The notes beneath the pieces were generated by a model. The model made no database searches. It was given only the letters and a program-made list of their open reading frames with translations, and was not told the origin of the DNA. Below, piece by piece: positions 23,635 to 40,226 of a DNA stretch of 64,000 bases (positions are counted from its first letter, which is position 1; each line of letters opens with the position of its first letter). Origin of the DNA: an uncultured Methanomassiliicoccus sp. (lineage in GTDB: Archaea; Thermoplasmatota; Thermoplasmata; Methanomassiliicoccales; UBA472); the NCBI GenBank assembly GCA_964585915.1, contig CAZPFU010000005.1, positions 7,452 to 71,451 on the forward strand, read 5' to 3'. Position numbers and translations under genes: made by a program.

Positions 23635-24576
23635 ATGGCGAACGCCAACATTGAAGAGTTGCCTGGAGTAGGACCCGCAACTGCCGATAAGCTCAGAGAA
23701 GCAGGATACACAAACCTCATGACCATAGCGGTGGAGTCGCCCAAGACCTTGGCCGACGCCTGCGACATAGGGGAGGCCACCGCGATCAAGATCATCGACG
23801 CCGCCAAGAAGGCCGCCGACGTGGGCGGTTTCGAATCTGGAGACGTCATTTTCGAAAGGAGAAAGAACCTCGACCGCCTGACCACCGGTTCAAAGGCCTT
23901 CGACGAACTGTTGGGCCATGGACTGGAGTCCCAGGCCATACACGAGTTCTACGGAGAGTTCGGCAGCGGCAAGACCCAGATATGCTTCCAGCTGGCAGTG
24001 AACGCCACCCTGCCCAAGGAGAAGGGCGGATTGGACGGTGACGTGGTCATAATCGACACCGAGAACACCTTCCGTCCGGAGAGGATAGTGCAGATGGCCA
24101 ACGGCATGGGGGCGGACCCGGAAGAGGTATTGAAGCGCATCCATGTCGCCCGGGCTTACAACTCCTCGCACCAGATGCTGCTGGTGGAGAAGGCCGCGGA
24201 CGTAGGCAAGCTGCACCCGGTCCGCCTGCTGATAGTGGATTCCCTGACCGCCCACTTCCGGGCCGAGTTCGTAGGCCGCGGTACGCTGGCGGAAAGGCAG
24301 GGTCTGCTGAACAAGCATATGCACGAGCTGCTGTCCTTCGCCGAGGTCAATAACGCGGTGATCGCCGTCACCAACCAGGTGTCCGCAAAGCCGGACGCTT
24401 TCTTCGGCGACCCCACCCGCCCGGTGGGCGGCCACGTGGTCGGGCACGCCTCCACCTACCGCGTATATCTGCGCAAGAGCAAGGGCACCCGCAGGATAGC
24501 CAGGCTCATCGATTCCCCTGACCGGCCTGAGGCAGAAGTGGTCATCAACGTGACCGAGGAAGGCGTCAGGGACTGA
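23635..24576 (+). CDS. radA: DNA repair and recombination protein RadA (no intein)
   Basis: [12 protein letters not shown] Hh[39 protein letters not shown]. Confidence 0.97.
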
Positions 24577-27147: not shown

Positions 27148-27963
27148 GTGAACACGCTCCTGCAGCTGTTCCGGATCGGCAACGCCGTGATGGGCATAGT
27201 CGGGCTCCTGATGGGAGTGCTCATCGCCGCCGGCACCGGAATATTGGATCACTGGCAGCCCATAGCGTTCGCGGCCGTGGCTGTCTTTTCCTTCATCGCC
27301 GGCGGAAATTCGCTGAACGATTACACCGACCGGGAGGTGGATAAGCTGGCGCATCCGGAGCGGCCGCTTCCCTCCGGGCGCATGACCCCCAGACAGGTAC
27401 TGTTCATATCCATAGCCAGCTTCGTCATCTCCTTCGTATCGTCCCTATTCCTGAACCTGGAATCGATCGTCATCGTGGTGTTGGCGATACTGTTGATGCT
27501 GTCCTACGAGGCCAAGCTGAAGAGGGACGCGTTGTCAGGAAACCTGGAGATCGCGCTGCTCACCGGAATGCTGTTCCTGCTCGGCGGGGCGGTGGTGGGC
27601 ATGATGGAGAGGACGTACATCATCGCCCTGCTGGCGTTCCTGGCCATACTGGGCCGGGAGATCGTCAAGGACATCGAGGACATGGCAGGGGATTTCGATC
27701 GGCAGACCCTTCCCAAGCGCATCGGGGCGAGGAACGCGGGAGTCATCGCCAGCCTCTCGTTCTTGGTGGCGGTGGCCCTTAGCCCGATACCTTACTTCGA
27801 CGGCACGTTCGGCATCTGGTATCTTGCCGCGGTGGCCTTCGCGGATGCAATATTTATATACTGCTCCATTGTTCATTTTGAAAACCCCACCAGGGGACAG
27901 AAGCTGGCCAAGTACGGCATGCTCCTGGCGCTGGTGGCCTTCCTCATCGGAGGGATACTGTGA
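27148..27963 (+). CDS. Digeranylgeranylglyceryl phosphate synthase (UbiA family)
   Basis: NDYTDREVDKLAHPERPLPSG, REIVKDIEDMAGD; adjacent to GGGPS. Confidence 0.88.
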   Translation: MNTLLQLFRIGNAVMGIVGLLMGVLIAAGTGILDHWQPIAFAAVAVFSFIAGGNSLNDYTDREVDKLAHPERPLPSGRMTPRQVLFISIASFVISFVSSLFLNLESIVIVVLAILLMLSYEAKLKRDALSGNLEIALLTGMLFLLGGAVVGMMERTYIIALLAFLAILGREIVKDIEDMAGDFDRQTLPKRIGARNAGVIASLSFLVAVALSPIPYFDGTFGIWYLAAVAFADAIFIYCSIVHFENPTRGQKLAKYGMLLALVAFLIGGIL

Positions 27964-28700
27964 CGGTCAAGGATTACATCTACGAGAAGGTTAAGAAGGG
28001 GACCATGCACATGACGCTCCTGGACCCTGCCAAGCAGAGCCCGGAGCACGCCGCCGAGATGGCCGCCGTGGCCGAATCCATGGACACCGACGCCATCATG
28101 GTGGGGGGTTCCACCGGCGTTACCCAGGAGAACCTGGACGCCACTATCCTGGCCATCAAGAAGAGGGTCAAGATACCGGTCATCTACTTCCCGTCCGGCG
28201 CCCATGCCATTTCACCGTTCGCGGACGCCATGTACTTCATGAGCATGCTGAACTCCATGGTCGTGGAGAACGTCATCCTGCAGCAGGTGAAGGGCGCCCC
28301 CATCGTCAAGAAGATCAACGTCGAACCGCTCTCGATGGGATACATCATCGTCGAGCCGGGAATGAAGGTCGGGGAGGTCGGCAAGGCCAGGCCGATCCCT
28401 CGTAACGAGCCGAAGACCGCCGCGGCGTTCGCTTTGGCCGCCGAGTACATGGGAATGGGATTGGTCTACCTGGAGGCGGGCAGCGGCGCTCCGCAGGCTG
28501 TTCCGGAAGAAATGATCGCCACCTGCAAGAAGAGCATCACCGTTCCGCTCATCGTGGGCGGGGGGATCCGTGACGCGGAGACCGCGGCCAGGGTCCGCAA
28601 GGCCGGCGCGGACGTCGTGGTCACCGGGACGGTCGTGGAGGACTCCGACCTTGGCGAGGACCTCAGAAACCTGATCAAGGCGGCCAAAGGCACCGCCTGA
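27960..28700 (+). CDS. Geranylgeranylglyceryl phosphate synthase (PcrB family)
   Basis: HMTLLDP, MVGGSTG, YLEAGSGA, VGGGIR, VVTGT. Confidence 0.93.
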   Translation: MTVKDYIYEKVKKGTMHMTLLDPAKQSPEHAAEMAAVAESMDTDAIMVGGSTGVTQENLDATILAIKKRVKIPVIYFPSGAHAISPFADAMYFMSMLNSMVVENVILQQVKGAPIVKKINVEPLSMGYIIVEPGMKVGEVGKARPIPRNEPKTAAAFALAAEYMGMGLVYLEAGSGAPQAVPEEMIATCKKSITVPLIVGGGIRDAETAARVRKAGADVVVTGTVVEDSDLGEDLRNLIKAAKGTA

Positions 28701-28713
28701 TCGTTCCTATTTC

Positions 28714-29304
28714 TTAAATCAAGGAAAACAACAACTGGTGCACCCTGGTATCGTTGGTGAGCTCAGGGTGGAAGGACAGCGCCAGGACGTTGTCCTGCCT
28801 GGCCATCACGGCTTCGCCCTGATGCCTGCATACGACACTGCAGCTGCCCCAGGTGCCGGTGATCAGCGGGGCGCGGATGAAGACGCCGGGAAAAGGCGAA
28901 TCCAGGCCTTCGATCTCCAGCGGCGCCTCGAAGGAATCCCTCTGTCTCCCGAAGGCGTTGCGGTCCACCGACATGTCCATAAGGCCCAGCAGTTCCGTTC
29001 CGGTGCGCTCCGCCTGCTCGCCGCCCTTCTTGGCCAGAAGAACGCATCCGGCGCAGGTGCCCATTATCGGCACCCCGTCCATGCCCATGGCCACTATCTC
29101 CTCGAAAAGATCGAACTTGCGCAGAAGCTTTGATATGGTGGTGCTCTCCCCACCCGGGATTATGAGACAATCCACGCTGCGCAGGTCGTCCAGACGGCGA
29201 ACGGCGATGGCCTCGCCCTTCCTCCCCATTGCCTCCATCGCCCTTTGGGACATGTGCAGGTGTTCGGGCACCGCGCCCTGAACGGAGATCACTCCGACCT
29301 TCAT
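28714..29304 (-). CDS. pdxT: Pyridoxal 5'-phosphate synthase glutaminase subunit
   Basis: GVISVQGA, PGGESTT, GTCAG, RNAFGRQ, FIRAP, FHPEL. Confidence 0.95.
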   Translation of the reverse strand: MKVGVISVQGAVPEHLHMSQRAMEAMGRKGEAIAVRRLDDLRSVDCLIIPGGESTTISKLLRKFDLFEEIVAMGMDGVPIMGTCAGCVLLAKKGGEQAERTGTELLGLMDMSVDRNAFGRQRDSFEAPLEIEGLDSPFPGVFIRAPLITGTWGSCSVVCRHQGEAVMARQDNVLALSFHPELTNDTRVHQLLFSLI

Positions 29305-29342: not shown

Positions 29343-30797
29343 CTAGGAATCGAACCTCTTGCGCTGATCGATGATCGGCCTCATCTTCGGGGTGAACTCC
29401 TTGGACACTTCCTTCATCTCCACCTCGATTGGGTCGAGCAGGTCGTTGTCCAGCCCGCTGCGGATCTCCTCCAGCTCCGTGATCGCCTTGAGGACCTCTT
29501 CCTTCCCCTTCTCCATGTCGCCGTTGTACTCCACGGTGAAGCGCAGATGGTCCCTGAACGACGGCTTGGTCAGCACCAGCTGATAGTTGAGCACGCCGTG
29601 CACCTTCATTATCGCCTCGTCGAACAGCGTCGGGAATATATGCTCGCCCAGGCCGATCTTGGTGGCCGCGTTGCGCCGCCCCTTGGGCTTGCCGATCTTT
29701 CCCACGGTCACATGCCCGCATTCGCAGGGCGGCGGAATGAACTTGGAGATGTCGTACGAACGATAGCGGAGGAGGGGGGAACCTTGGAAGGACAGCGACG
29801 TCCAGACCAGCTCGCCCTCCTCGCCTGGCGGAAGCTTCCTGCCGGTGTCCGGATCGATGACCTCCACCATGAAGTCCGCCTCGTTGATGTGCAGCCCGGT
29901 TTGGACGTGGCACTCGATGGTGGTGGCCAGACCCATCTCGGTCAGCCCGTACTGGCTCAGACACTTGCAGCCCCAGGCCTCCTCCATCTCGTGACGGACC
30001 GCCTCGGACAAAGGCTCGGACGAGCAGATTATGGCCTTGAGACCGAGGGAGCGCAGGTCATACTTGTCCCTGGCCAGGACCGTGATCCGGTAGATGAAGG
30101 AGGTGAGGCCGATGATTACCTTGGTCTTCTGCTCCTGCATCACCCTCAGCTGCTCGTCCACGTTGACGTCTGAGCATACCAGGGACTTGAGCCCGGCCAC
30201 CTTGCAGGCGCTCTCCAGCATCAGGCTGGGGTCCCAGGCCACCACCGCCGGGAACATGATGTGCAGCGTCTCGTTGCTCTTCAGCCCGGCGGAGCGCAGC
30301 GCGGCGGCGATGGAGTCGACGATGTTCAGAAGGTCGTCGCTGGTGTAGAAGAGCCTCTTGGGTTTTCCGGACGTTCCGGAGGTGGAGAAGGTGCGGGAGA
30401 TCTTGCTCTGGGACATGCACAGGAAAAGGAAAGGTTCCTCGGCCAGGTCGTCCGGGTCCGTCAGCGGGACCTTGTCCAGGTCGGCCATGGTCCGGATGTC
30501 CTCCGGTCTGATCCCGGCCTCGCCGTACTTCTTCTGGTAGAACGGGCTGTTATCCATGACGTAGGCCATCTGCTTGCGGAACTTGTACAGCTGGTATTCC
30601 TCGAACGTCCTCCGGTCGATCTCGCCCAGCTCGTTCCGTCCAAGGGCCTTGCGGAACCCGTCCTCGCGCTTGAAGGTGTTGCGCACCTTGAGCTGCACCC
30701 AATCGTGCAACGGGTTCTCCACGTCCTCCGACACCTTGCGGGAGGTGAGCTTGGTGCGGGCGTAGGCCATGATGATGCGTTTCTTGAGGCTCATCAC
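29343..30797 (-). CDS. Phenylacetate-CoA ligase-like AMP-dependent ligase (DVU_1553-like)
   Basis: PLHDW...EYQLYKF...SPFY N-terminus, STSGTSGKPK P-loop, YGLTEMG, PLLRYRSYD. Confidence 0.85.
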   Translation of the reverse strand: MMSLKKRIIMAYARTKLTSRKVSEDVENPLHDWVQLKVRNTFKREDGFRKALGRNELGEIDRRTFEEYQLYKFRKQMAYVMDNSPFYQKKYGEAGIRPEDIRTMADLDKVPLTDPDDLAEEPFLFLCMSQSKISRTFSTSGTSGKPKRLFYTSDDLLNIVDSIAAALRSAGLKSNETLHIMFPAVVAWDPSLMLESACKVAGLKSLVCSDVNVDEQLRVMQEQKTKVIIGLTSFIYRITVLARDKYDLRSLGLKAIICSSEPLSEAVRHEMEEAWGCKCLSQYGLTEMGLATTIECHVQTGLHINEADFMVEVIDPDTGRKLPPGEEGELVWTSLSFQGSPLLRYRSYDISKFIPPPCECGHVTVGKIGKPKGRRNAATKIGLGEHIFPTLFDEAIMKVHGVLNYQLVLTKPSFRDHLRFTVEYNGDMEKGKEEVLKAITELEEIRSGLDNDLLDPIEVEMKEVSKEFTPKMRPIIDQRKRFDS

Positions 30798-30871
30798 TGG
30801 CGAATGCCCTCCTGCTCATATATTATTTTCAAACCGCAGGACTATTAAGAACGAAGTCCCATTTCCAGGTC

Positions 30872-31648
30872 ATGGCGGACGCGTCGTTGGAGGCTTGGGC
30901 CAGGGACTTCCGTGCGGAGCTGAACCTGGGGACCTATCCGGTGGGTGTGAAGCTCTTCGAGAAAGCCTCCGAGGCCTTGGCCGTGAAGGGAGCCAAGGTT
31001 ATGCGCTCCACGGCCACCTGCCACATGGCCGCGCTCGCCCGCCACTACCGGGAAGATGGCATCACCGTCACCGCCGCCCAGGGCATGAAGTGCCTTTGGG
31101 GCCTGGCCTGCCTAGGGCTCATCGAAACGCCTGAACGTTTGGCCCGGGGAGACCTGAACCTTCCTTTCACCAAGGACGAGCACGCCGCCCGGACGCTCCA
31201 GGGCCACATCTTCATGCTCGGCAATGATGGACGCAAATACAACGGCATGCTAATGGCCCCCCTGGACCTGATGCCGGTGAAGCCGGATGCCATCGTTGCC
31301 TACCTGACGCCCGGGCAGTCGCTGAAGGTGCTGCTCGGTTACGAGTACAAGGAGGGAAGGGTGCTGAAAGGGACGACCATCACCGGCCAATCCTCGGTCT
31401 GCTCAGCGATCGCCCGGGTGATCAACGGAGAGGACATGGTGCTGGACATTCCCTGCGTGGGCGATCGGACCTGGGGCCTCGTCCCTGATCAGGAATTGGT
31501 GGTGGCGATCTCGCCCAAGGTCTTCGGGGAGGTGCTGGAGGGCATGAAGGCGACCGATAGGTTCGCTAGGCACCCGTTCCGGCCGTTCCTCAACTGGTCG
31601 GTGATCTTCCCCCCGGACATGGAGCCCCTCCCGAAGGAGCTGGAATGA
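30872..31648 (+). CDS. DUF169 family protein
   Basis: YPVGVKL, CHMAALAR, KCLWG, PLDLMPVKPD, CSAIA, IPCVGDR. Confidence 0.8.
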   Translation: MADASLEAWARDFRAELNLGTYPVGVKLFEKASEALAVKGAKVMRSTATCHMAALARHYREDGITVTAAQGMKCLWGLACLGLIETPERLARGDLNLPFTKDEHAARTLQGHIFMLGNDGRKYNGMLMAPLDLMPVKPDAIVAYLTPGQSLKVLLGYEYKEGRVLKGTTITGQSSVCSAIARVINGEDMVLDIPCVGDRTWGLVPDQELVVAISPKVFGEVLEGMKATDRFARHPFRPFLNWSVIFPPDMEPLPKELE

Positions 31649-31724
31649 CGAAAGTTCCTTATAGAAACGTAAACGGGGGAAAAGCAATATATTATGAGCG
31701 TGGTTATGCTGCCAGAGTGATAAA

Positions 31725-32030
31725 ATGCCGCTGACACCGGAATTGCGCAGAGCGGGAGTGACGCCGGAACTGATGAACACCACCAGACGTTTCGCCTGCC
31801 CTAATTGCGGTAAGGAGTTCAGCCTCATGCAGTCTCGCGCCATCGCCTGCCGCGGCTGTCGTTTCGCCAACACCAATTGCCGTTATGCCCGCTGCCCCTA
31901 CTGTGACAAGGAGTTCCCGATGGAGCAGGTCATCACCAAGAACAAGTATGGCGAGAAGTATCTGGCCAGCTACGCCAACAACATCCTGAACAACTACTAC
32001 AACCAGTTCGGGAAGAGGAACTCTCGGTAA
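31725..32030 (+). CDS. Small Cys-rich (7 Cys) metal-binding protein
   Basis: CPNCG, CRGC, C, CPYC motifs; followed by a T/A tract. Confidence 0.75.
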   Translation: MPLTPELRRAGVTPELMNTTRRFACPNCGKEFSLMQSRAIACRGCRFANTNCRYARCPYCDKEFPMEQVITKNKYGEKYLASYANNILNNYYNQFGKRNSR

Positions 32031-32066
32031 TTGAAATTGTTTTAAAAAAATGGGGCGTGAGCCCCT

Positions 32067-33461
32067 TTACTTACTGTTCTCGCTGAACTTCGACCACATC
32101 TCGTGCCGGTACAGCGTCTTCCCTTCCATGGAGTTGATGTTGAACAGGCAGAAGGGGATCAGCTTGCCATCCGGCGTGACGGTATGGATGCAGCAGTTGC
32201 GGAAGCGCTCGGTCTCCGAGGTCCAGGCGTCCTGGAAGGCCATGGTGGAGACGGTCAGATAATGCGTCTTCGCCCTGTCCACGAAATCGCCCCACTCGTT
32301 GGTGTTGCCGTCATCCTCCTCGACGATGAGCGAGTCCTCGATGAAGCGCCAGAGGTCGGATATCTCCTTGCGGGTCTTGTCCGCCACGTTCGCGGTCTCC
32401 TTGGGCGGACCGAAGGCCCTGCTCGTTAACGGGAACAGAGAGCCGTCCTCCATGACCACCGACATGGACTTGGCGTCGCAGTGGACGTTCGAGCATGATG
32501 TCGGAATGAAGTTGTCCACCCGGAGCTCGCCGTTGGTCTGGTCCTCGATGGCCTTCAGCAGGTCGGGGATGGTCACCCGGTCGCTGTCCTTGGGGGATAT
32601 CGGAAACCTGCCGAAGTAGGCGATGGGCTGGAAATGCACCCCTTTGATGGTAGGCACCTTGGACTTGGCGAAGTTGATGACCTCGCCCACCCGGTCCAGG
32701 TTGATGTTCGGGGAAACGACCGTCACCAGTGTTATGCCCATGCCCACCTTCTCACAGTTCTCGATGCATTTGAGCTTCTGCGCCAGGATGTCGCGTCCAC
32801 AGGTCTGCTTGTAGATGTCTCCGTGAAGCCCGTCGAAGGAGAAGTACAGATCGTCCGCCCCGGCCTCCTTGACCTTCCTGAGGAACTCGATGTCCTCGGC
32901 GAAGCGGATGCCATTGGTGTTGATCTCGATGTAATCGATGCCCATCTCCTTGCCCATGCGGATGATGTCGGGAAGATCGTCCCTGATGGTGGGCTCGCCT
33001 CCGCTGATCTGAACGACAATGGGGTGGTCCACATAGTCCAGCATGGTCTGGTACATTCCCTTGATTACCTCCAGCGAGGGGCTGAACTTGTAGAACTGAT
33101 TGGCGGAGGCGAAGCACACCGGGCACTTCAGATTGCAGCCGTTGGTGATCTCCATGACCACCAGGCAGGTGTGCTGGACGTGGTCCGGACATAGACCGCA
33201 TATCTGCGGGCAGTTGTCCTTCTCCTGCACGGCGAGCTTCAGGGGCCTGGACTGTACGGCCGCGTAGCGGTACATGTCCTGATAGTCATCCTTGCCCCTC
33301 CATGCCAGCACCTTCCATGTTCCGTGCTCAGGGCACTCCTTGATGAGATAGACCTTGTCCTCCTCGACCACCTTGGTGACCGGGATGGTCTTCAAGCATT
33401 TGGGGCACAACCCATTGGTATGACCGATGACCTCGCTCATTTCATTCACCGTGATATCCAA
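32067..33461 (-). CDS. Radical SAM enzyme of the TrsS/Tes (COG1964-type) superfamily
   Basis: CPKC...CPEHG, CPQICGLCPDH, CNLKCPVC (CxxxCxxC), HFQPIAYFGR, MAFQDAW, CCIH...IPFC. Confidence 0.88.
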   Translation of the reverse strand: MDITVNEMSEVIGHTNGLCPKCLKTIPVTKVVEEDKVYLIKECPEHGTWKVLAWRGKDDYQDMYRYAAVQSRPLKLAVQEKDNCPQICGLCPDHVQHTCLVVMEITNGCNLKCPVCFASANQFYKFSPSLEVIKGMYQTMLDYVDHPIVVQISGGEPTIRDDLPDIIRMGKEMGIDYIEINTNGIRFAEDIEFLRKVKEAGADDLYFSFDGLHGDIYKQTCGRDILAQKLKCIENCEKVGMGITLVTVVSPNINLDRVGEVINFAKSKVPTIKGVHFQPIAYFGRFPISPKDSDRVTIPDLLKAIEDQTNGELRVDNFIPTSCSNVHCDAKSMSVVMEDGSLFPLTSRAFGPPKETANVADKTRKEISDLWRFIEDSLIVEEDDGNTNEWGDFVDRAKTHYLTVSTMAFQDAWTSETERFRNCCIHTVTPDGKLIPFCLFNINSMEGKTLYRHEMWSKFSENSK

Positions 33462-33528
33462 CTGGAATGACGTGCGGCACTATTCTACTTTTTGTTGAGA
33501 ACGTGGGCGGCGCCTCCGCATCGCTGGT

Positions 33529-33561
33529 AAAAATAAAAGGAAAGGCCGCGTTTAGCGGCCT
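33529..33561 (-). terminator. Hairpin plus U-tract terminator
   Basis: AGGCCGC-GTTTA-GCGGCCT stem followed on the minus strand by TTTCCTTTTATTTTT, just after the 33571 stop. Confidence 0.65.
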
Positions 33562-33570
33562 GAAGTGGTT

Positions 33571-34020
33571 TTAAGCGCGCTTCTTCTCGAAGAGACCCTC
33601 GGCAGCGGCCAGGGTCTTGATGGCCAAGTACTCTTCAACCCAGGCGTCCCCGGTAGCGGGGTCGATGAGGGCCGGACCGTTCCTCTTGACGGTCATGTAC
33701 TCCATCTCGACGTGTCCCTGAGCGATCGGCTTGCCATCCTTGGTCTTCCAGTTGGTCTCTGCCATGACGTTGACGACCTTGCCCAAGTGCATCTTGTGCG
33801 CGTAGGCGGTCTTGACCACGGCGGTTCCCTTTCCGGAGAGGTCGCTGACGACGTAGACGGTGAGTCCGCCGATGACCTTCTTGGCCAGTCCGTCGTTTCC
33901 GTTCTTGATGTACTTGCCGGTCTGGCAAGCGGTGTTCACGACGTCATTGACGTCGGATTCCTTCAGGCCCCTCTTCGCGATGAGCTCCTTCACGTTGGCG
34001 GGTATAGTAATAGTTACCAT
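33571..34020 (-). CDS. Uncharacterised 149-aa protein resembling the DVU_1557 redox family but without its Cys pairs
   Basis: Strong RBS GGTGAGGTG, highly biased codons, C-terminal VEMEY...DPATG..WVEEYLA....EGLFEKK pattern. Confidence 0.7.
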   Translation of the reverse strand: MVTITIPANVKELIAKRGLKESDVNDVVNTACQTGKYIKNGNDGLAKKVIGGLTVYVVSDLSGKGTAVVKTAYAHKMHLGKVVNVMAETNWKTKDGKPIAQGHVEMEYMTVKRNGPALIDPATGDAWVEEYLAIKTLAAAEGLFEKKRA

Positions 34021-34030
34021 TTTTGTCACC

Positions 34031-35161
34031 TCACCATGTTCCGTAGGTACCGAAGTCCCTAGCCGCCTTGACCAAGGCCAACATCTGACCGGGTATGGTG
34101 TACGGAGGAGTCTCGCAAGCAGTACCCAGGATGTAACCCTTCTTGGAGTCACGGCCCTGGAGCAGCTGCTCCTTAGCCTGGTTGTACACCTTGTTCGGGT
34201 TGTTGTCGATCATCAGCTTGGTGTCGACGGAACCCATGCAGGTCGCCTTGTCCTGGAAGGTCTCCTTCAGCAGGGCGGACGGGAAGACGTTCCTTCCCTG
34301 GTAACCGGCGTGGATCACAGTGAACGGGGACCACATCAAGCCGTCCTTGAACAGCTTGTAGTCGGTCTGGTGGTTACCGCAGAGGTGATAGAACACCTGC
34401 GGGCCGGCCCCGTGCTTGAAGCAGCCGTCCACGTACCTGAACATGTTCTTCACGGAGTACCTCTCGACGCCCTCGTCGCTGAAGATATCGTTGTTGGCCA
34501 GAACGGACCCGACGATCAGCATCGCCATTCCGTACTTGTCGGCCATCGCCTCAGCTCCGTTGATGGCGGTGTCGGTGTATATCTGCACCAGCTTTTCCGC
34601 TTGGTCGGCCTCGGTGAAGGTCCACATGATGAAGTTCTCGACACCGACCATCTCAGCCGCGGCTCCGACCAGGTCGAAACCGTAGGAGATCGGCACCAGG
34701 GTCATCGGCAGGTTCTTGGCGACATAGTCGTAGATCCTGAAGAACCTGGGTACGGTGGCGAACTCACCGGTGGTCTTCACAAGCTCCTCCTTGGAGATCA
34801 CGCGCATCTTGTCGACATCCTCGGGGTCCGAGTATATCGGTCCCTTCGAGATCGGCGGCAGCGTCTCCTTGTAGTGCAGCTTCAGCCCAAGCTCAGTGAC
34901 CCACGGCAACGAGAAGAACCAGTGCGTCACTGGCAGTAGGTCAAAGAGATGGGATATGTAGCCCACGCAGTGGATACCCAACTCCGGTTTTTCATAGAAG
35001 TCCCTAATGGTATACCCGCAGGCCACAGCGGCGTTGGACAAGATGATCGGGTCCACGTCTATGCGGTCATGTGGGTTGTCCACAAAGGGGCTCGCAAAGC
35101 GCTTGGCGGCATTACCGTGCCACCTGCTATCCATGGCTGGAAACATTTCTTCGTAGCCCAT
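34031..35161 (-). CDS. MtaA/MtbA/CmuA-type (UroD-fold) corrinoid:thiol methyltransferase
   Basis: YHLCG (H-x-C zinc ligands) and GTACETP (third Cys), MGSVD, AAAEMVGVENFIMW. Confidence 0.8.
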   Translation of the reverse strand: MGYEEMFPAMDSRWHGNAAKRFASPFVDNPHDRIDVDPIILSNAAVACGYTIRDFYEKPELGIHCVGYISHLFDLLPVTHWFFSLPWVTELGLKLHYKETLPPISKGPIYSDPEDVDKMRVISKEELVKTTGEFATVPRFFRIYDYVAKNLPMTLVPISYGFDLVGAAAEMVGVENFIMWTFTEADQAEKLVQIYTDTAINGAEAMADKYGMAMLIVGSVLANNDIFSDEGVERYSVKNMFRYVDGCFKHGAGPQVFYHLCGNHQTDYKLFKDGLMWSPFTVIHAGYQGRNVFPSALLKETFQDKATCMGSVDTKLMIDNNPNKVYNQAKEQLLQGRDSKKGYILGTACETPPYTIPGQMLALVKAARDFGTYGTW

Positions 35162-35367: not shown

Positions 35368-36192
35368 TCAGGCCAGGCGTTGGTAGGCGGCCACGAACAG
35401 GAAGATACCGGCGGCACTGAAGACGATCACTCCACTGGTGGAGACGCTGAACAGCACGGAGAGAACTATACCTAGTACTGCAGCCCCCACCCCGAAGACG
35501 GTGGACGCTATCAAAGTGGACTTGAAGGACCTCTTGAGCTGCAGGGCGGTGAGCCCGGGCAGCACCATGAGCGCCACGACCAGGATTATTCCTATCACCT
35601 TTATCGACAGAGCTATGGTCACCGCCACCAGGAGGTTGAAGGCCATGGTCATCGCCTCCACCGGTATGCCCTGAAGGCGAGCGCCATCCTCGTCGAAGGT
35701 CACGGCCAGCATCTCCTTGTAGAAGAAGACCATGAACCCGATTATGACCAGGGCGAGAATGACCAGCACTGTCAGGTCGGTGCTGTCGATGGTGAGTATC
35801 GAGCCGAACAGGTAGCTGAAAAGTTCCACGTTGAAACCGTTGGCCAGAGAGATCACGATCATACCCACCGAGAAGCCCATGGCCATCATGACCGCTATGG
35901 CCGCGTCGGATTGCGCCAGCCCCTTCCTTCGCATATAGGTTATGCCGAGCACCGCCGCGGCCGAGACCGCCATCGCGCCAAGCATGGGGTCTATGCCGAT
36001 GAGAAGGCCTACCGCAACGCCCCCGAAGGCGGTGTGCGCCACCCCGTCCACCAGCATCGATTCCTTGCGCAGGATCAGGAACAGCCCTATCCAGGCGGAT
36101 ACGACCGCGGCGAGTATCCCGCCGACCAGGGCCATCTGCAGGAACTGATACTGGAATAAGGAGGGAAGGTCGAAGACGTCAAAGCTGCTCAT
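35368..36192 (-). CDS. Metal ABC transporter permease (ZnuB/MntB type)
   Basis: DGVAHTAFGG, YLFGSIL, TFDEDGA, IKVIGIILV. Confidence 0.9.
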   Translation of the reverse strand: MSSFDVFDLPSLFQYQFLQMALVGGILAAVVSAWIGLFLILRKESMLVDGVAHTAFGGVAVGLLIGIDPMLGAMAVSAAAVLGITYMRRKGLAQSDAAIAVMMAMGFSVGMIVISLANGFNVELFSYLFGSILTIDSTDLTVLVILALVIIGFMVFFYKEMLAVTFDEDGARLQGIPVEAMTMAFNLLVAVTIALSIKVIGIILVVALMVLPGLTALQLKRSFKSTLIASTVFGVGAAVLGIVLSVLFSVSTSGVIVFSAAGIFLFVAAYQRLA

Positions 36193-36967
36193 CGACGAAC
36201 ACCCCCTTGCATTGATGCCTGTGGAAGGCGAAGTGGAAGTGTTCGCCATATCCGCGCTTGAGCACGTCGTCAGGAACCGTGCCCTCGACGATGGTGCTGC
36301 TGTGCACCTGCCGGTTGACGCAGAGCACACGTGACATCCGGCAGAAGACCGCGGTGAGGTCGTGCGAGATGATGAGGATGGTGAGGCCTTTATTCTGATT
36401 GAGGTTCGCCAGCTGCATGAAGAACTTCTCCTGGGTCATGGGATCGAAGCCGGTGACCGGCTCGTCCAGGACCAGCAGTTCCGGGTGGCTGACCAGGGAT
36501 TTGGCGACGAAGGCCCTCTGTCTCTGCCCGCCCGAGAGCATGCCGATGCGCTTGTCCGCCAGATCGGATATGCCCATGAGATGGAGCGCTTCATTGACGG
36601 CCTTCCAGTCATCCTTGTTCCGGAAGCGGCCCATGTTCCTCTTGTTGACCCGTCCCAGCCCCACCAGCTCCTTGACCGTCAGGGGAAATTGGGAATCGAA
36701 GTTGATGGCGAACTGCGACACGTAACCGACCTTCTCCCACTGGTCGAAGGACTCGATCTCCTGTCCCATTATCCGGATGCTGCCCTCGGCCTTCGGCAGA
36801 AGCCCGAGCAACGCCAGCACCAGGGTCGTCTTCCCCCCGCCGTTGGGACCGACGATCCCGACGTAATCGCCCCTCTCTATCGAGAAATCGGCCTTGGTTA
36901 TCGCCTCGGTGCTGCCGCGCCTGACCGTCAATCCCTTGACTTCGATTATCGGCTCCATCTTCATCAC
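36179..36967 (-). CDS. Metal ABC transporter ATP-binding subunit (ZnuC type)
   Basis: GPNGGGKTT, LSGGQRQR, LDEP, ISHD, His-rich C-terminus. Confidence 0.92.
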   Translation of the reverse strand: MMKMEPIIEVKGLTVRRGSTEAITKADFSIERGDYVGIVGPNGGGKTTLVLALLGLLPKAEGSIRIMGQEIESFDQWEKVGYVSQFAINFDSQFPLTVKELVGLGRVNKRNMGRFRNKDDWKAVNEALHLMGISDLADKRIGMLSGGQRQRAFVAKSLVSHPELLVLDEPVTGFDPMTQEKFFMQLANLNQNKGLTILIISHDLTAVFCRMSRVLCVNRQVHSSTIVEGTVPDDVLKRGYGEHFHFAFHRHQCKGVFVDEQL

Positions 36968-37884
36968 TGCGGTACGCCTAGCCCGGTCCTCAGGTTGATC
37001 AGGTTCTGGGATAGCTGCTCCAGATAGTCCAGCTCCTCATAGGGGCCCAGTGTGAGGAACATCTCCAGCACCGACACCTCCTGACCGGTCCTCGATTCCA
37101 GTTCCTGTTTCAGGATCTGGGCGTAGTCCCGCTTGTACACCGGGTCCACGTAGACGGTGTAGATGCTCTCGTTCTCCATGATCTCCACCAGGTCGGCGAT
37201 GGCCGCGACGGTCGGCTCCTGGTCCGCGCTGAGGCCGATGACCCCGTACTGACTGAAGTTGTAATCGTACGCCACGTATCCCAGTGCGGAATGGGATACG
37301 ATCACGCCGGACACCGTGGCATTGTTCAGGGAACGGTACTGTTCGTCAAGGGACGCCAGGGTAGCGTTCAAGGCGCCGAACCTTTCGGTGAAGTACTCCT
37401 CGCCCTCGGGGTCCGCCTCGCATAAGGCGTGGTAAACGTTCCTGGCCTGGACCATGGCCCTCCCGGGGCTAAGCCAGGTGTGCGGGTCCGTCCCGCCCTC
37501 CTCGCCGCCGGCGATGTAGGAGACGCCCAGTGTCGTGTTGACTATCACCTTTCCCGCGTCGTTGACCGCGGGGAGCACGTCATCGACCAACCAATGGTCG
37601 GCCGGACCGCCGTTATAGAGTATGACATCCGCATCGTCCGCCCTTATGATGTCCTGAGGGGCGGGCTGCCAGGAGTGCAGCTCGGCGTTGTAGGGGACCA
37701 TGGACGAAACGCTCACCCGGTCGCCCCCGATGCTTTCCGCCATGTAGGCCAGGGGATAGAACGTCGCCACTACCTGGGTCCTGTCCTCATCGCCGTCCTG
37801 GTTACGGAGGACGGATGATGCTAATATGAGGATGATGACCGCCACGAAAGAACCAATGACCAAGATGAGCTGCTTGCGATTCAT
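36964..37884 (-). CDS. Metal ABC transporter substrate-binding protein (ZnuA/TroA type)
   Basis: ATFYPL, ELHSWQP, DPHTWLSP, SHSALGY; N-terminal anchor; no His-rich loop. Confidence 0.9.
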   Translation of the reverse strand: MNRKQLILVIGSFVAVIILILASSVLRNQDGDEDRTQVVATFYPLAYMAESIGGDRVSVSSMVPYNAELHSWQPAPQDIIRADDADVILYNGGPADHWLVDDVLPAVNDAGKVIVNTTLGVSYIAGGEEGGTDPHTWLSPGRAMVQARNVYHALCEADPEGEEYFTERFGALNATLASLDEQYRSLNNATVSGVIVSHSALGYVAYDYNFSQYGVIGLSADQEPTVAAIADLVEIMENESIYTVYVDPVYKRDYAQILKQELESRTGQEVSVLEMFLTLGPYEELDYLEQLSQNLINLRTGLGVPQ

Positions 37885-38064
37885 GTGCCCATGAATGCCT
37901 AATGCAAGCTAGTTAATAACATTTTCCTAATTAATTAATAAATTGGCCTCGCAGCTTGTATGCCCCACCTCAGTACCCATTCAGCCTTATCTGAAATAAC
38001 TGGATAGCAGGATCGGCCCTGATGATCTATAAGTGTATTATTAACGTTGATGTAGAAGTATATA

Positions 38065-38085
38065 TATCAATTAATAACATTGATA
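38065..38085. promoter_or_regulatory. Inverted repeat TATCAAT-N7-ATTGATA between the TATA box and start of nikR
   Basis: Perfect 7-bp arms; the core TTAATAACATT is repeated at 37913-37923 in the divergent znuA-like promoter. Confidence 0.5.
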
Positions 38086-38090
38086 CGAAC

Positions 38091-38474
38091 ATGCCGATCA
38101 TCAGCGTCTCCCTGACCGATAAGAACGTGGAGGACCTAGAGTCACTGCAGAAGGACCTTGGTTTCGGCGGCCGCTCGGAGGCCATCCGTGCGGCGATGCG
38201 GGCCCTTGTAGCGGAGACGAGCGAGCGCCGTTCCATGGTGGGCCAGGTGGACGGCGTACTGATAATGGTCAACGATGCCTGCGCATCCGGGTCCATCCAC
38301 GACATCTATCATGACAACCACCTTCTGATCAAGACCCACGTGCACAACCACCTGGGCAACCACAAGTGCATGAACATGATGGTGCTCAGCGGAGATGCCG
38401 CGGACATCAACGAGCTCCTGGACCAGATGCACCGTCTGGAGGGGATCGCCTACTTGAAGTTCATACGCTCCTGA
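38091..38474 (+). CDS. nikR: NikR-like RHH-ACT metal-responsive regulator
   Basis: ISVSL...GRSEAIRAA RHH domain; H..HVHNH...C metal ligands in the ACT domain. Confidence 0.8.
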   Translation: MPIISVSLTDKNVEDLESLQKDLGFGGRSEAIRAAMRALVAETSERRSMVGQVDGVLIMVNDACASGSIHDIYHDNHLLIKTHVHNHLGNHKCMNMMVLSGDAADINELLDQMHRLEGIAYLKFIRS

Positions 38475-39831
38475 GCTTCTCCAAAGGGTAACCGTTGGCC
38501 ATCCATGCTACGACCCCGCCCAGCATTATCCTGACGTTCTTGATGCCGCTGTTGCGCAGCATGCTCGCCGCGATACCGCCGCGATATCCGGAGCCGCAGA
38601 AGAGGACCAGCTCCTTGTCCGCGGGAAGCTCCGAGGACCTCTCTATTATCTTTCCGAGATGCAGAAGCATCGCACCCGGTATGAGGCCGGAATCGAGCTC
38701 CCGTCGGTCCCGCAGGTCGACCAGCAGCATCTCGTCCCCGGCTAGCTGCCTCCGGCGGATCTCATGAACCGTGGACGCCCCGATGGCGGAGGTGGCGTGC
38801 CCGCCCTTGATCCAGGATTCCATGCCATGGCCCAGATGGCCGGCGATCTCCTCGTACCCGATGCGGATCAGATATCGGACGGCGATGTCCACCTCCTGCT
38901 GCCTTTCCGCCACGATGATCAGTGGCCGCCCGTAGGGGATAGCGTACCCGCCGTATACCGGGAGGCCGTTCAACCAGACATTGAGCGAGCGGGGTATGTG
39001 CGCCGCGGCGAAGTTGTGCGGCTCCCGCACGTCCAGGACCAAAGCCCCGTTCTCCTGGGCCTTGATGATCTTTTTAGGGGAGAGCGGGGGCGGCTGGGGC
39101 AGCGTGCCCATTATTATCGGGCCGTTGAGGTTCAGGGCCTCCATCCTGGTGAAGTAGGGAGGCCTCTCCATGCCCTCACCCATCTTGGCCATCATGAAGT
39201 CCAGTTTCTTCAGCGATAGCGCGTGATTGTCCCTGAGCTCCAGCCCGATGGTGGTCATCTCCCTGTCGGAGATGGCGTGCCCGCAGGCCGAGCCGGCCCC
39301 GTGCGCGGGAAGCACCATGATCTCAGGGCCCAGGGGAACGATCCGTTTATGCAGCGATTCGAAAAGCTTTTCCGACAGGTCCCGGGTGCTCTCCGGCCCG
39401 GTCAGGTCCGTCCGGCCGACGTCGCCCGAGAAGAGCGTATCCCCGGAGAAGAGGAGGAACGGGCCCCTTTCGTCAGACACCAGGAAGCAATGGCTCTCGT
39501 AGGTGTGACCCGGGGTGTGGACCGCCCTGAAGGTCAGGTCGCCCAATTGGAACTCCTGCCCGTCCACAAGCGGGTTACCGTAACCGAACTCCAGCTGGTC
39601 GCCGTGGTATATGGCCGCGCCGGTGGCATTGGCCAGCTCTAGCGCCCCGGAGACGTAGTCCTCGTTGCGGTGCGTCTCCAGCACCAGCACCACCCTGGCG
39701 TCCCTTTCCTTAGCCAGTGATAGATAATCGTCAACGTCCCGGCGCGGGTCGATCACTGCCGCCTCTCCGCCTGACTCCAGAAAGTAGGAGATATGCGCCA
39801 GACCCTCCGACCTTACCTTCTTCAAGAACAT
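38461..39831 (-). CDS. MBL-fold hydrolase with two rhodanese domains (persulfide dioxygenase/sulfurtransferase type)
   Basis: ETHRNED, HTPGHT, GDTLF, PAHGAGSACG, LDVR, FCGSGYRG. Confidence 0.88.
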   Translation of the reverse strand: MFLKKVRSEGLAHISYFLESGGEAAVIDPRRDVDDYLSLAKERDARVVLVLETHRNEDYVSGALELANATGAAIYHGDQLEFGYGNPLVDGQEFQLGDLTFRAVHTPGHTYESHCFLVSDERGPFLLFSGDTLFSGDVGRTDLTGPESTRDLSEKLFESLHKRIVPLGPEIMVLPAHGAGSACGHAISDREMTTIGLELRDNHALSLKKLDFMMAKMGEGMERPPYFTRMEALNLNGPIIMGTLPQPPPLSPKKIIKAQENGALVLDVREPHNFAAAHIPRSLNVWLNGLPVYGGYAIPYGRPLIIVAERQQEVDIAVRYLIRIGYEEIAGHLGHGMESWIKGGHATSAIGASTVHEIRRRQLAGDEMLLVDLRDRRELDSGLIPGAMLLHLGKIIERSSELPADKELVLFCGSGYRGGIAASMLRNSGIKNVRIMLGGVVAWMANGYPLEKLRSV

Positions 39832-39872: not shown

Positions 39873-40226
39873 TCAGCCCTTCCGTTCAAATCCGTCCTTC
39901 ATCAATGCCTTGACCGCCTCCTCCTGACGGTCCAAGGGAACCAGGATGTGATCGTATCGGTATGTGGATATGACGAACACCGGTATGCCGGCCCCGGCCA
40001 GGGCCGCCGAGGCCTGGGCCAGTATCCCGACCAGCGAGAGTTCGAACGGACCCATGGTCAGACACGCGTAAGGACCGTTGGCCTTCGGACCGGTGTCCGG
40101 GGAGATCACCGTCATCTCGTCCCCTTCGTCCACGGTGGCGAAGCGTTCCCCTTTGAACGCCTCGTTACGCGCCAGGTGGTGAACGTAGAGAGGCGGTCGG
40201 TCCAACCAGAATTTCGCCATGAACAT
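39873..40226 (-). CDS. ACT domain protein
   Basis: GPFELSLVGILA...LAGAGIPVFVISTYRYDHILV. Confidence 0.8.
   Translation of the reverse strand: MFMAKFWLDRPPLYVHHLARNEAFKGERFATVDEGDEMTVISPDTGPKANGPYACLTMGPFELSLVGILAQASAALAGAGIPVFVISTYRYDHILVPLDRQEEAVKALMKDGFERKG

Follow-up and report, generated by a model that had tools for sequence, protein, structure and literature searches.

A corrinoid-linked archaeal variant of the TrsS radical SAM system in Methanomassiliicoccales and other methyl-using archaea

Introduction

TrsS is a family of radical S-adenosylmethionine (SAM) proteins, reportedly named by Haft and Tolstoy in 2025, whose gene neighborhood in bacterial anaerobes has been defined computationally by a series of NCBIfam models (NF045646, NF045666, NF045645, NF045667, NF045669, NF045663, NF045668, NF045665 and NF045664). 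Such systems are common in anaerobes, including sulfate reducers, acetogens and Dehalococcoidia. In Desulfosporosinus (locus L077) the genes follow the order aldehyde oxidoreductase, NF045663, DVU_1557, DVU_1555, DVU_1556 methyltransferase, TrsS, DVU_1553 ligase, DVU_1551 nucleoside triphosphate (NTP) transferase and XdhC, and all of the products pass the family cut-offs except XdhC (318.6 bits, cut-off 350). Here we describe a TrsS cluster in a 64-kb stretch of DNA, referred to as the window, from an uncultured Methanomassiliicoccus sp. (contig CAZPFU010000005.1, positions 7,452 to 71,451), in which TrsS and a ligase are accompanied by a zinc-type methyltransferase of the URO-D superfamily and a protein of 149 amino acids (aa).

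Like the bacterial neighborhood, the window cluster contains neighboring genes for TrsS and the ligase, which are fused in some organisms, as well as domains similar to DVU_1557 and to the C-terminal tail of NF045663. Unlike it, the cluster lacks the aldehyde oxidoreductase, the flavoprotein/dicluster core, the C-GCAxxG-C-C protein, the SAM methyltransferase, the NTP transferase and XdhC. What the archaeal clusters have in addition is the URO-D zinc methyltransferase, a cysteine-rich protein of 101 aa and a DUF169 protein, while a single protein combines the tail with the DVU_1557 domain; in relatives of the window organism, genes for corrinoid proteins, MtaA and a corrinoid activase are found as neighbors. 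The cluster thus represents a new, corrinoid-linked archaeal variant of an already named system. A 2026 review refers to TrsS solely as one of the selenoprotein families of Haft and Tolstoy 2025, and a literature search, which did not reach the latter paper itself, returned no description of the URO-D/149-aa partnership, the 149-aa fusion, the corrinoid neighbors or the expression pattern.

The individual proteins also have relatives in other described systems. The TrsS of the window matches the tetraether synthase Tes/GDGT-MAS (PDB 7TOL) in its N-terminal zinc-ribbon/rubredoxin-like domain, radical SAM core and cluster-binding cysteine motifs, whereas most of the C-terminal substrate-binding half cannot be aligned and the gene partners, a ligase and a methyltransferase, are foreign to lipid synthesis. 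The URO-D fold and the His-x-Cys...Cys zinc site are common to the window methyltransferase and to the MtaA/MtbA, MtsA and MtpA (with MtpC) systems, and mtpCA-type operons resemble the order corrinoid protein, URO-D, MtaA seen in Methanomethylicaceae. However, the known corrinoid URO-D systems have no 149-aa partner, whereas the URO-D protein of the cluster is paired with one and with an adjoining radical SAM gene, and unlike the enzymes of those systems it scores only 57-60 bits on the MtaA and CmuA models (cut-offs 235-244). The ligase has the ANL adenylate-forming fold of PaaK and F390 synthetase but differs from PaaK by a 55-residue N-terminal extension and by a higher score on the DVU_1553 model; in some archaea, again unlike PaaK, its orthologs lack the C-terminal domain (348-350 aa).

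Results and Discussion

Gene content of the cluster

An earlier note, made from the sequence alone, had described four genes on the minus strand, and all four are present: those for the URO-D methyltransferase (34031-35161, 376 aa), the 149-aa protein (33571-34020), TrsS (32067-33461) and the ligase (29343-30797, 484 aa), the last with the N-terminal signature PLHDW...YQL...SPFY that the note had quoted. Two genes on the plus strand had been overlooked. They are located in the 1.3 kb between the TrsS and ligase genes, belong to the conserved block, and encode the cysteine-rich 101-aa zinc-ribbon protein (31725-32030) and the 258-aa DUF169 protein (30872-31648; Pfam DUF169, 121 bits), the latter divergently oriented to the ligase gene. 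Ortholog alignments place the start of the URO-D gene at the ATG at 35161, where RNA contigs end (35159-35160). The TrsS open reading frame (ORF) opens at a TTG at 33461, but since the orthologs begin with MSE(V/L)IG, the ATG at 33440 (MSEVIG in the window) is the likelier start. The note was also right that no molybdopterin aldehyde oxidoreductase is present: tblastn searches of the 64-kb window with the Desulfosporosinus proteins found no aldehyde oxidoreductase, NF045663 core, DVU_1555, DVU_1556, DVU_1551 or XdhC, and the same set was missing from the other Methanomassiliicoccales loci except for weak DVU_1557 hits in three of them. The window organism occurs in digester and wastewater samples, and the TrsS of the nearest public metagenome-assembled genome (MAG) is 94% identical to it in amino acid sequence.

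Conservation of the gene arrangement

To compare gene neighborhoods, we scanned one genome per species, which yielded 80 TrsS loci; 4 loci from earlier look-ups and 5 later ones were added. Genes were mapped with tblastn, using 84 loci for the main synteny comparison; about 57 of the loci are bacterial and about 28 are archaeal with a URO-D gene, and 20 are from Methanomassiliicoccales. The URO-D and 149-aa genes immediately precede TrsS in each of the 19 Methanomassiliicoccales loci with upstream sequence, in both families of the order, and the three genes are likewise adjacent, at some loci on opposite strands, in nine of nine loci from other archaeal lineages. These include Methanolobus and other Methanosarcinales, a Hadarchaeum MAG and a close relative of it, a MAG labelled Nitrososphaerales, Methanomethylicaceae, and one archaeon that has mcrBDGA next to the cluster (L088). 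An arrangement of this kind is far beyond chance. A ligase gene was found in 17 of the 18 Methanomassiliicoccales loci that extend past TrsS, and among the other archaeal loci 8 of 9 have one, so that the four genes are syntenic in Methanomassiliicoccales and beyond. The cluster is an archaeal variant, as the earlier note had proposed for methanogens, but one that is not confined to Methanomassiliicoccales.

None of the approximately 57 bacterial TrsS loci contains a URO-D gene. Most of them instead contain a gene for an ArsM-like SAM methyltransferase, usually together with the aldehyde oxidoreductase set. We distinguished loci with the full oxidoreductase set (type A; sulfate reducers, Sporomusa, Clostridia, Anaerolineae and others), loci without the oxidoreductase that contain a CCG/dicluster part, the tail, DVU_1557, a methyltransferase, TrsS and the ligase (type B; mainly Dehalococcoidia), and the archaeal loci with URO-D, the 149-aa fusion, TrsS and the ligase (type C). 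The absence of the oxidoreductase, which the earlier note had pointed out, is real in the window but not a defining trait, since it extends to the Dehalococcoidia-type loci. A neighbor-joining tree of TrsS contained three groups that matched the three architectures, with the URO-D-linked sequences as one clade that is sister to the bacterial loci without oxidoreductase; the chosen Tes-like outgroup was interspersed with TrsS, and we therefore used the clade grouping but not the rooting. Rfam scans of 14 bacterial loci identified molybdenum cofactor (Moco) riboswitches upstream of the aldehyde oxidoreductase in two loci of the oxidoreductase type, two in tandem in L032 (1588-1702 and 2122-2242) and a Moco-II motif in L044 (1801-1845), and nothing informative beside the loci that lack the oxidoreductase.

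The methyltransferase and its corrinoid neighbors

The protein encoded at the head of the cluster is a distant relative of MtaA and CmuA. It matches the Pfam model URO-D (PF01208) with 88.8 bits and falls below the cut-offs of the MT2 models TIGR01463 (57.3 bits, cut-off 235), NF040654 (36.5, cut-off 400) and NF041608 (20.1, cut-off 600). In the alignment with MtaA of known structure (PDB 4AY7), HLCGN is aligned with HICGN and ACETPP with GCGIAP. The zinc triad His259, Cys261 and Cys349 (His-x-Cys...Cys) is retained in all of the URO-D orthologs and aligns with that of true MtaA proteins, including those encoded next to the cluster in relatives. The sequence is 73-75% identical between the two Methanomassiliicoccales families.

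The surrounding genes are informative in several relatives. At two Methanomethylicaceae loci (L086 and L087), the genes are ordered corrinoid protein (TIGR02370, 200 bits), URO-D (with 44% identity to its counterpart in the window), 149-aa homolog and true MtaA (437 bits, cut-off 400); this operon is divergent from the 101-aa and TrsS genes, which are followed by genes for a CobW-like GTPase, DUF169, a HemN/HutW-like radical SAM protein and a DVU_1553-type ligase. At L088, a RACo/AcsV-like corrinoid reductive activase gene is divergent from a series that comprises the URO-D, 149-aa and TrsS genes as well as a gene for an ArsM-like class I methyltransferase overlapping the 3' end of TrsS, and an MtaA-like gene (362 bits), methanogenesis marker 11 and the mcr operon (mcrBDGA) are located downstream. 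Corrinoid-protein genes are also found near the cluster in two Methanomassiliicoccaceae MAGs (L018 and L021) and one Methanosarcinales MAG (L035). Since genes for corrinoid proteins, MtaA and the activase neighbor the cluster in relatives, there is good evidence that the URO-D protein is a candidate corrinoid-dependent methyltransferase.

The earlier note had called this protein an MT2-type methyltransferase. Its assignment to the zinc-containing URO-D/MtaA superfamily agrees with our results, but an MT2 identity is less probable, because a true MT2 is encoded beside URO-D in relatives. The position of the Methanomethylicaceae gene between those for the corrinoid protein and MtaA suggests a substrate-side (MT1-like) or otherwise distinct function. 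The URO-D protein thus probably differs from MtaA in its role, and an MT1-like role as in the MtsA and MtpA systems would be the simplest reading.

A class C radical SAM gene of the HemN/HutW-like type was observed together with a corrinoid-protein gene beside the cluster in L086 (11323-12630), L018 (643-1882) and L021 (6693-7942). No such radical SAM gene is present in the window.

The 149-aa fusion protein

Residues 2-79 of the 149-aa protein match the last 80 positions of NF045663 (679-757, E = 1.6e-5), a model for a bacterial pyridine nucleotide-disulfide oxidoreductase/dicluster-binding protein, and the N-terminal half has the motif AY(S/A)H(R/K)M in common with this tail. The C-terminal third, when compared with bacterial sequences, resembles DVU_1557, in which an acidic/basic helix comes after a zinc ribbon. 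A bacterial DVU_1557 query identified the orthologs in L007, L018, L021 and L088 (tblastn, E = 1e-5 to 1e-8), and many orthologs have precomputed PF24292 hits, while the window protein scores 24.6 bits on Pfam DUF7479, under the gathering score of 27. The C-terminal helix (EEYLAxKTLAAAEGLFEKKRA) is almost invariant among the orthologs. By contrast, all four zinc-ribbon cysteines (CxxC...CxxC) have been lost in the window clade and several others, although they are kept in most other Methanomassiliicoccales orthologs and in other archaeal lineages.

In Dehalococcoidia the NF045663-type tail and the DVU_1557 domain are encoded by adjacent, separate small ORFs, whereas they are fused in the archaea. 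Judged from these alignments, the 149-aa protein unites, in one fused chain, the C-terminal tail of NF045663 and a degenerate zinc ribbon like that of DVU_1557. The earlier note had expected a DVU_1557-like member in the cluster, and such a domain is indeed found, but only as the C-terminal part of a fusion that has lost its cysteines. A high-confidence AlphaFold2 model of the protein was obtained (pLDDT 87); a fold search with it returned weak BrnT/RelE-like matches to the N-terminal domain only (E = 0.2), which gave no functional clue. Sequence searches of the PDB with the 149-aa protein and with the DUF169 protein yielded no match.

The radical SAM enzyme

As the earlier note had recognized, the radical SAM protein belongs to TrsS. 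It scores 521.3 bits on NF045646 (cut-off 490) over model positions 2-441 of 441, and the NCBI annotation pipeline already applies this name to the Methanomassiliicoccales orthologs. Pfam domains include Radical_SAM (PF04055, 81 bits) and the HMPTM-type zinc ribbon Zn_ribbon_HMPTM (PF23545, 56.7 bits). The sequence contains an N-terminal zinc ribbon, the motif CPxxCGLCPxH, the radical SAM motif CNLKCPVC at residues 109-116 and a C-terminal CCIH...PFC. On the tetraether synthase model (NF045702) the score is 371.2 bits, below the cut-off of 450, with the best stretch covering model positions 2-313 of 486, and the match to GDGT-MAS (7TOL, E = 4.5e-86) consists of a strong part, residues 14-321 with about 40% identity, and a short segment at the C-terminus.

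Most bacterial TrsS proteins contain a cysteine-rich loop (G-C...C-C), which is replaced by FGPP or LGPP in the window and in other archaea (alignment columns ~401-412). This loop is presumed to be the selenocysteine region of the bacterial proteins, and whether it defines the family is uncertain; in-frame TGA codons were not found in TrsS at any of the 84 loci. Elsewhere, TrsS homologs occur as fusions with one of several partners, namely a DVU_1553-like ligase, a class I methyltransferase, a MobA-like NTP transferase or DUF5714, and the ligase domains of such fusions match the window ligase at E = 4e-44 with about 30% identity. Since such fused forms exist, the functional link of TrsS to the ligase, like that to a methyltransferase, rests on gene fusion as well as adjacency.

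One Methanomethylicaceae TrsS (P0124) has EYPKIWDPSL in place of the nearly invariant CPxxCGLCPxH (columns ~115-125) while keeping the URO-D/149-aa/corrinoid neighborhood, and has probably lost one auxiliary cluster site. DUF5714 forms the C-terminus of two TrsS fusions (P0125 and P0158) and is encoded near Methanosarcinales clusters (L033, L035, L045 and L050); its stretch GxCGxxGxCGAxxG resembles the C-GCAxxG-C-C motif, and the domain may be a counterpart of DVU_1555.

The ligase and the two plus-strand genes

The PaaK-type ligase has both an N-terminal AMP-binding and a C-terminal AMP-binding_C_2 domain. It was described in the earlier note as DVU_1553-like, and this family (NF045666) is indeed its best match (274.1 bits), ahead of the PaaK model (215 bits; PDB PaaK 2Y27, E = 1.5e-49), albeit with a score below the family cut-off of 300. 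The other archaeal orthologs score 235-270 bits on the same model, whereas bacterial examples reach 312 and 458 bits and pass the cut-off. Rather than generic PaaK proteins in a dispersed set of genes, the searches thus identified a DVU_1553-related ligase in a syntenic block. The note had suggested a variant that would activate a small acid and modify it by radical chemistry, which is a plausible reading.

The 101-aa protein has the cysteine pattern CxxC...CxxC...C...CxxC and yields only weak zinc-ribbon hits. It is a conserved companion of archaeal TrsS, as tblastn located orthologs beside TrsS in Methanomassiliicoccales, Hadarchaeum-like loci, L023 and Methanomethylicaceae. The DUF169 gene is present in L003-L015, L023 and L086 and missing from the loci of gut Methanomethylophilaceae.

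Transcription of the cluster

Expression was estimated as contig depth in four metatranscriptome runs from three studies; for the other parts of a 49.5-kb section of the window, two of these runs were used. The URO-D and 149-aa genes were covered at a depth of 20-70, TrsS at 1-12 and the ligase gene at 0-2, while depth elsewhere in the 49.5-kb section did not exceed about 12. The first two genes were thus roughly 5-20 times as deeply covered as TrsS, the ligase gene and the rest of the window. RNA contigs ended at ~35160 and at 33565-33576, and depth dropped about 10-fold past the 149-aa gene. Just beyond the stop codon of this gene is a terminator-like hairpin with a T-rich tail (33543-33561, minus strand), which is the probable end of the URO-D/149-aa transcript, and a GC-rich hairpin that is terminator-like on both strands lies between the convergent stop codons of the TrsS and 101-aa genes (32052-32065). 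Based on the contig ends and the hairpins, the cluster comprises at least four transcription units, and the URO-D and 149-aa genes form an abundant bicistronic message.

One RNA contig (from run X25) touches the window only via two 22-base stretches, at 43812 and 47176, that are 3.4 kb apart in the window and separated by 519 unrelated bases in the contig. This is probably due to a short shared repeat or to a chimeric assembly.

A model with two modules and an adaptor

We tentatively favor, at somewhat less than even confidence in the mechanism as a whole, a reading of the locus as an archaeal, corrinoid-linked form of the TrsS system that is composed of two modules and one adaptor. It builds on the gene identities, synteny, fusions, zinc-site conservation, corrinoid neighbors and transcript pattern described above, from which we infer every chemical step. 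The first module would consist of TrsS, the DVU_1553-type ligase, the 101-aa protein and often the DUF169 protein, all expressed at a low level. The ligase would adenylate a carboxylic acid, possibly followed by transfer to CoA or a carrier. TrsS, whose cluster-binding motifs are the same as in the tetraether synthase and which therefore probably activates an inert C-H bond, would then abstract hydrogen from an unactivated carbon of the ligase-activated molecule to form a new C-C or C-S/Se-type bond.

The second module would consist of the URO-D and 149-aa proteins, made from their own high-level transcript. Here, the URO-D protein, as a zinc-dependent enzyme, would catalyze methyl transfer between a corrinoid protein and a thiol-type soft nucleophile on the molecule handled by the first module or on a relative of that molecule, most likely on the substrate side as in MT1 enzymes, with a true MtaA encoded alongside in relatives. 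Members of the MtaA superfamily use zinc-thiolate chemistry, and it is this chemistry together with the ArsM-like partner methyltransferases of the bacteria that points to a soft nucleophile as acceptor. The 149-aa protein would serve as an adaptor that couples the two modules, a role suggested by its bacterial counterpart domains, which are encoded between the Hdr-like oxidoreductase and the methyltransferase, TrsS and ligase genes.

A more specific version of this model appears unlikely at present. In it, the URO-D and 149-aa proteins would be the substrate-specific methyltransferase of an unrecognized methyl-transfer route in methyl-reducing and methylotrophic methanogens, moving a methyl group to or from a thiol-, selenol- or arsenic-type compound via a dedicated corrinoid protein, with MtaA providing the link to coenzyme M and with TrsS and the ligase making or recycling a carboxylate-bearing partner. 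If correct, it would represent a new substrate or cofactor branch of methanogenesis and the first function for the widespread TrsS system.

Several observations weigh against the two-module model. Genes for a corrinoid protein, MtaA or an activase were not found in the 64-kb window. A URO-D paralog, 55% identical and encoded in a Methanomassiliicoccaceae genome (L085, 7001-8119) where it is flanked by an ABC ATPase gene and an unannotated one, has no 149-aa, TrsS or ligase gene nearby. The ligase does not reach the DVU_1553 cut-off, and residues 96-147 of the 149-aa protein match the DVU_1557 model (NF045645) at only E = 0.13 and 12.4 bits (cut-off 60). Because the cysteine-rich loop is missing, the chemistry of archaeal TrsS may differ from that of the bacterial proteins. 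As separate units of very different abundance, the URO-D/149-aa and TrsS/ligase pairs may not act stoichiometrically; the contig depths are themselves a rough measure of expression, yet the pattern was consistent across runs. In Methanomassiliicoccales, synteny continues into unrelated housekeeping genes (GGGPS and RadA), and part of it thus reflects a general conservation of gene order. Finally, our literature search found no functional study of any TrsS-system protein, nor of DUF169, DUF5714 or DUF7479.

The archaeal form is present throughout Methanomassiliicoccales and in several methyl-using, MCR-bearing lineages, including gut and digester methanogens, and in digester metatranscriptomes the URO-D/149-aa message is the most abundant transcript of the window. 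The links to a corrinoid protein, MtaA and a corrinoid activase offer a concrete experimental handle in cobalamin methyl transfer. The cluster points to an unrecognized methyl-transfer branch in methanogens that is relevant to methane emission, and possibly to the cycling of methylated sulfur, selenium and arsenic.

Alternative explanations

The most probable alternative, although we consider it fairly unlikely, follows the earlier note and is a purely biosynthetic TrsS pathway in which URO-D, as an MT2-type methyl-corrinoid:thiol methyltransferase, has replaced DVU_1556 and methylates the product of the ligase and TrsS from the methyl-corrinoid pool that methylotrophic methanogens maintain. 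The distributions of the two methyltransferase types are nearly complementary, with URO-D in the ~28 archaeal loci and in none of the ~57 bacterial ones, most of which have a SAM methyltransferase; the zinc-thiolate site is conserved, and all of the hosts are methyl-using archaea that have MCR. However, L088 has both URO-D and the ArsM-like class I methyltransferase, which weakens a one-for-one replacement and led us to reject a general swap of SAM methyltransferases for URO-D. Moreover, the URO-D gene is located upstream of the tail and DVU_1557 genes, which is the position of the bacterial oxidoreductase rather than that of the methyltransferase, L086 already has an MT2 in the true MtaA beside URO-D, and a tailoring methyltransferase would not usually be expressed at a level so far above that of TrsS and the ligase.

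It is also conceivable, but rather improbable, that two unrelated functions are held adjacent by gene order, with the URO-D and 149-aa proteins constituting a stand-alone, abundant housekeeping or catabolic corrinoid thiol methyltransferase. The separate transcription units with a terminator between them, the at least 10-fold difference in depth and the solitary URO-D paralog are all consistent with this, as is the broad conservation of gene order in Methanomassiliicoccales, which extends to GGGPS, DGGGPS, an M50 peptidase and RadA. Yet the adjacency of URO-D, the 149-aa gene and TrsS recurs in at least four other archaeal lineages with wholly different flanks, and the two domains of the 149-aa protein are those that always precede the bacterial methyltransferase, TrsS and ligase genes, which ties this protein to TrsS independently of URO-D. 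Even in a housekeeping role, the 149-aa fusion would be a new partner protein for enzymes of the MtaA superfamily.

A specialized chemistry of metalloids or chalcogens is a weaker candidate still, and one we regard as doubtful. The system would form or process a carbon bond to arsenic, selenium or sulfur on a carboxylic acid, with ArsM-like methylation in the bacteria and methylation or demethylation by corrinoid and URO-D in the methanogens, possibly feeding methyl groups to methanogenesis. The bacterial partner methyltransferases score 114-151 bits on arsenite methyltransferase models and retain two aligned cysteines, at the NC(V/A)L and (S/T)C(I/L)AGA positions, which resemble the arsenic-binding pair of ArsM. 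Pairs of radical SAM and ArsM enzymes make organoarsenicals, TrsS and its neighbors are often selenoproteins according to the NCBIfam names, and in Methanolobus profundi the ligase gene is followed by a gene of the MIP family, which includes aquaglyceroporins. Methylotrophic methanogens including Methanomassiliicoccus demethylate dimethylarsenate with enzymes that have not been assigned (PMC10579292). On the other hand, none of the methyltransferases reaches the ArsM cut-off of 263, the MIP gene was seen at one locus only and no ars genes were seen near the clusters. The cluster is also universal and highly conserved in Methanomassiliicoccales, those of the gut included, and digesters show high URO-D expression, which fits better with a core function than with a trait specialized for metalloids. 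The papers on arsenic demethylation named no candidate enzyme that matches the cluster.

The MIP (aquaporin/glycerol-facilitator) gene of Methanolobus profundi is located at 12705-13418 of L047, with regulators of the FilR1 and TrmB types and a TauE-like exporter nearby.

A function in membrane lipids, with the TrsS-like enzyme acting as a tetraether synthase or as the glycerol-backbone methylase that gives butanetriol tetraethers (BDGTs), is very improbable. TrsS is a close homolog of Tes/GDGT-MAS, the PcrB/UbiA (GGGPS/DGGGPS) genes lie downstream of the ligase gene both in the window and in the other Methanomassiliicoccales loci with enough sequence on that side (PcrB alone at some gut loci), and Methanomassiliicoccus luminyensis makes BDGTs by methylation with no assigned enzyme. 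However, the score is above the TrsS and below the Tes cut-off, and in the C-terminal half only short stretches align with Tes. Methanolobus makes diethers rather than tetraethers. We downgraded this reading because orthologous clusters are found in such organisms and in bacteria that have no archaeal lipids, and because the adjacency to GGGPS is specific to Methanomassiliicoccales; nor does an acid-activating ligase have an obvious substrate in ether-lipid synthesis.

Finally, a module for the maturation or cofactor modification of a molybdenum enzyme, which would be in line with the location of most bacterial TrsS/ligase genes between the aldehyde oxidoreductase and the MocA-like and XdhC maturation genes, with the Moco riboswitches upstream of some bacterial loci and with the fusions of TrsS to MobA-like NTP transferases, is extremely unlikely, as no molybdenum enzyme or Moco gene is present in the window or at any archaeal locus, the Dehalococcoidia-type loci also lack the oxidoreductase, and the archaeal partner genes are related to corrinoids rather than to molybdenum.

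Neighboring genes

About 0.6 kb beyond the ligase gene, the plus strand encodes a UbiA prenyltransferase of the DGGGP synthase type (27148-27963) and the GGGP synthase PcrB (27960-28700), and a PdxT/SNO glutaminase gene (~28714-29304, minus strand) separates these ether-lipid genes from that of the ligase. PcrB, mostly with UbiA, also follows the ligase gene in most other Methanomassiliicoccales loci, but not in the other archaeal lineages.

Directly upstream of URO-D (35368-38474) are genes for a ZnuABC-type ABC transporter, comprising an ABC-3 permease, an ATPase and a ZnuA-like binding protein, and for a NikR-like regulator. Their adjacency to URO-D is not conserved in L001 or L003, and the Methanomethylicaceae cluster has the CobW-like metallochaperone GTPase instead. 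Further upstream, the minus strand encodes a 456-aa protein with a metallo-beta-lactamase and two rhodanese domains that is similar to persulfide dioxygenases (38461-39831), followed by an ACT-domain protein (39873-40226). On the other side of the cluster, the window RadA (23635-24576, plus strand, 313 aa) is free of inteins, whereas the syntenic RadA of the genome that contains L003 and L004 (from ~17098) has an intein (Pfam Intein_splicing; 487-492 aa).

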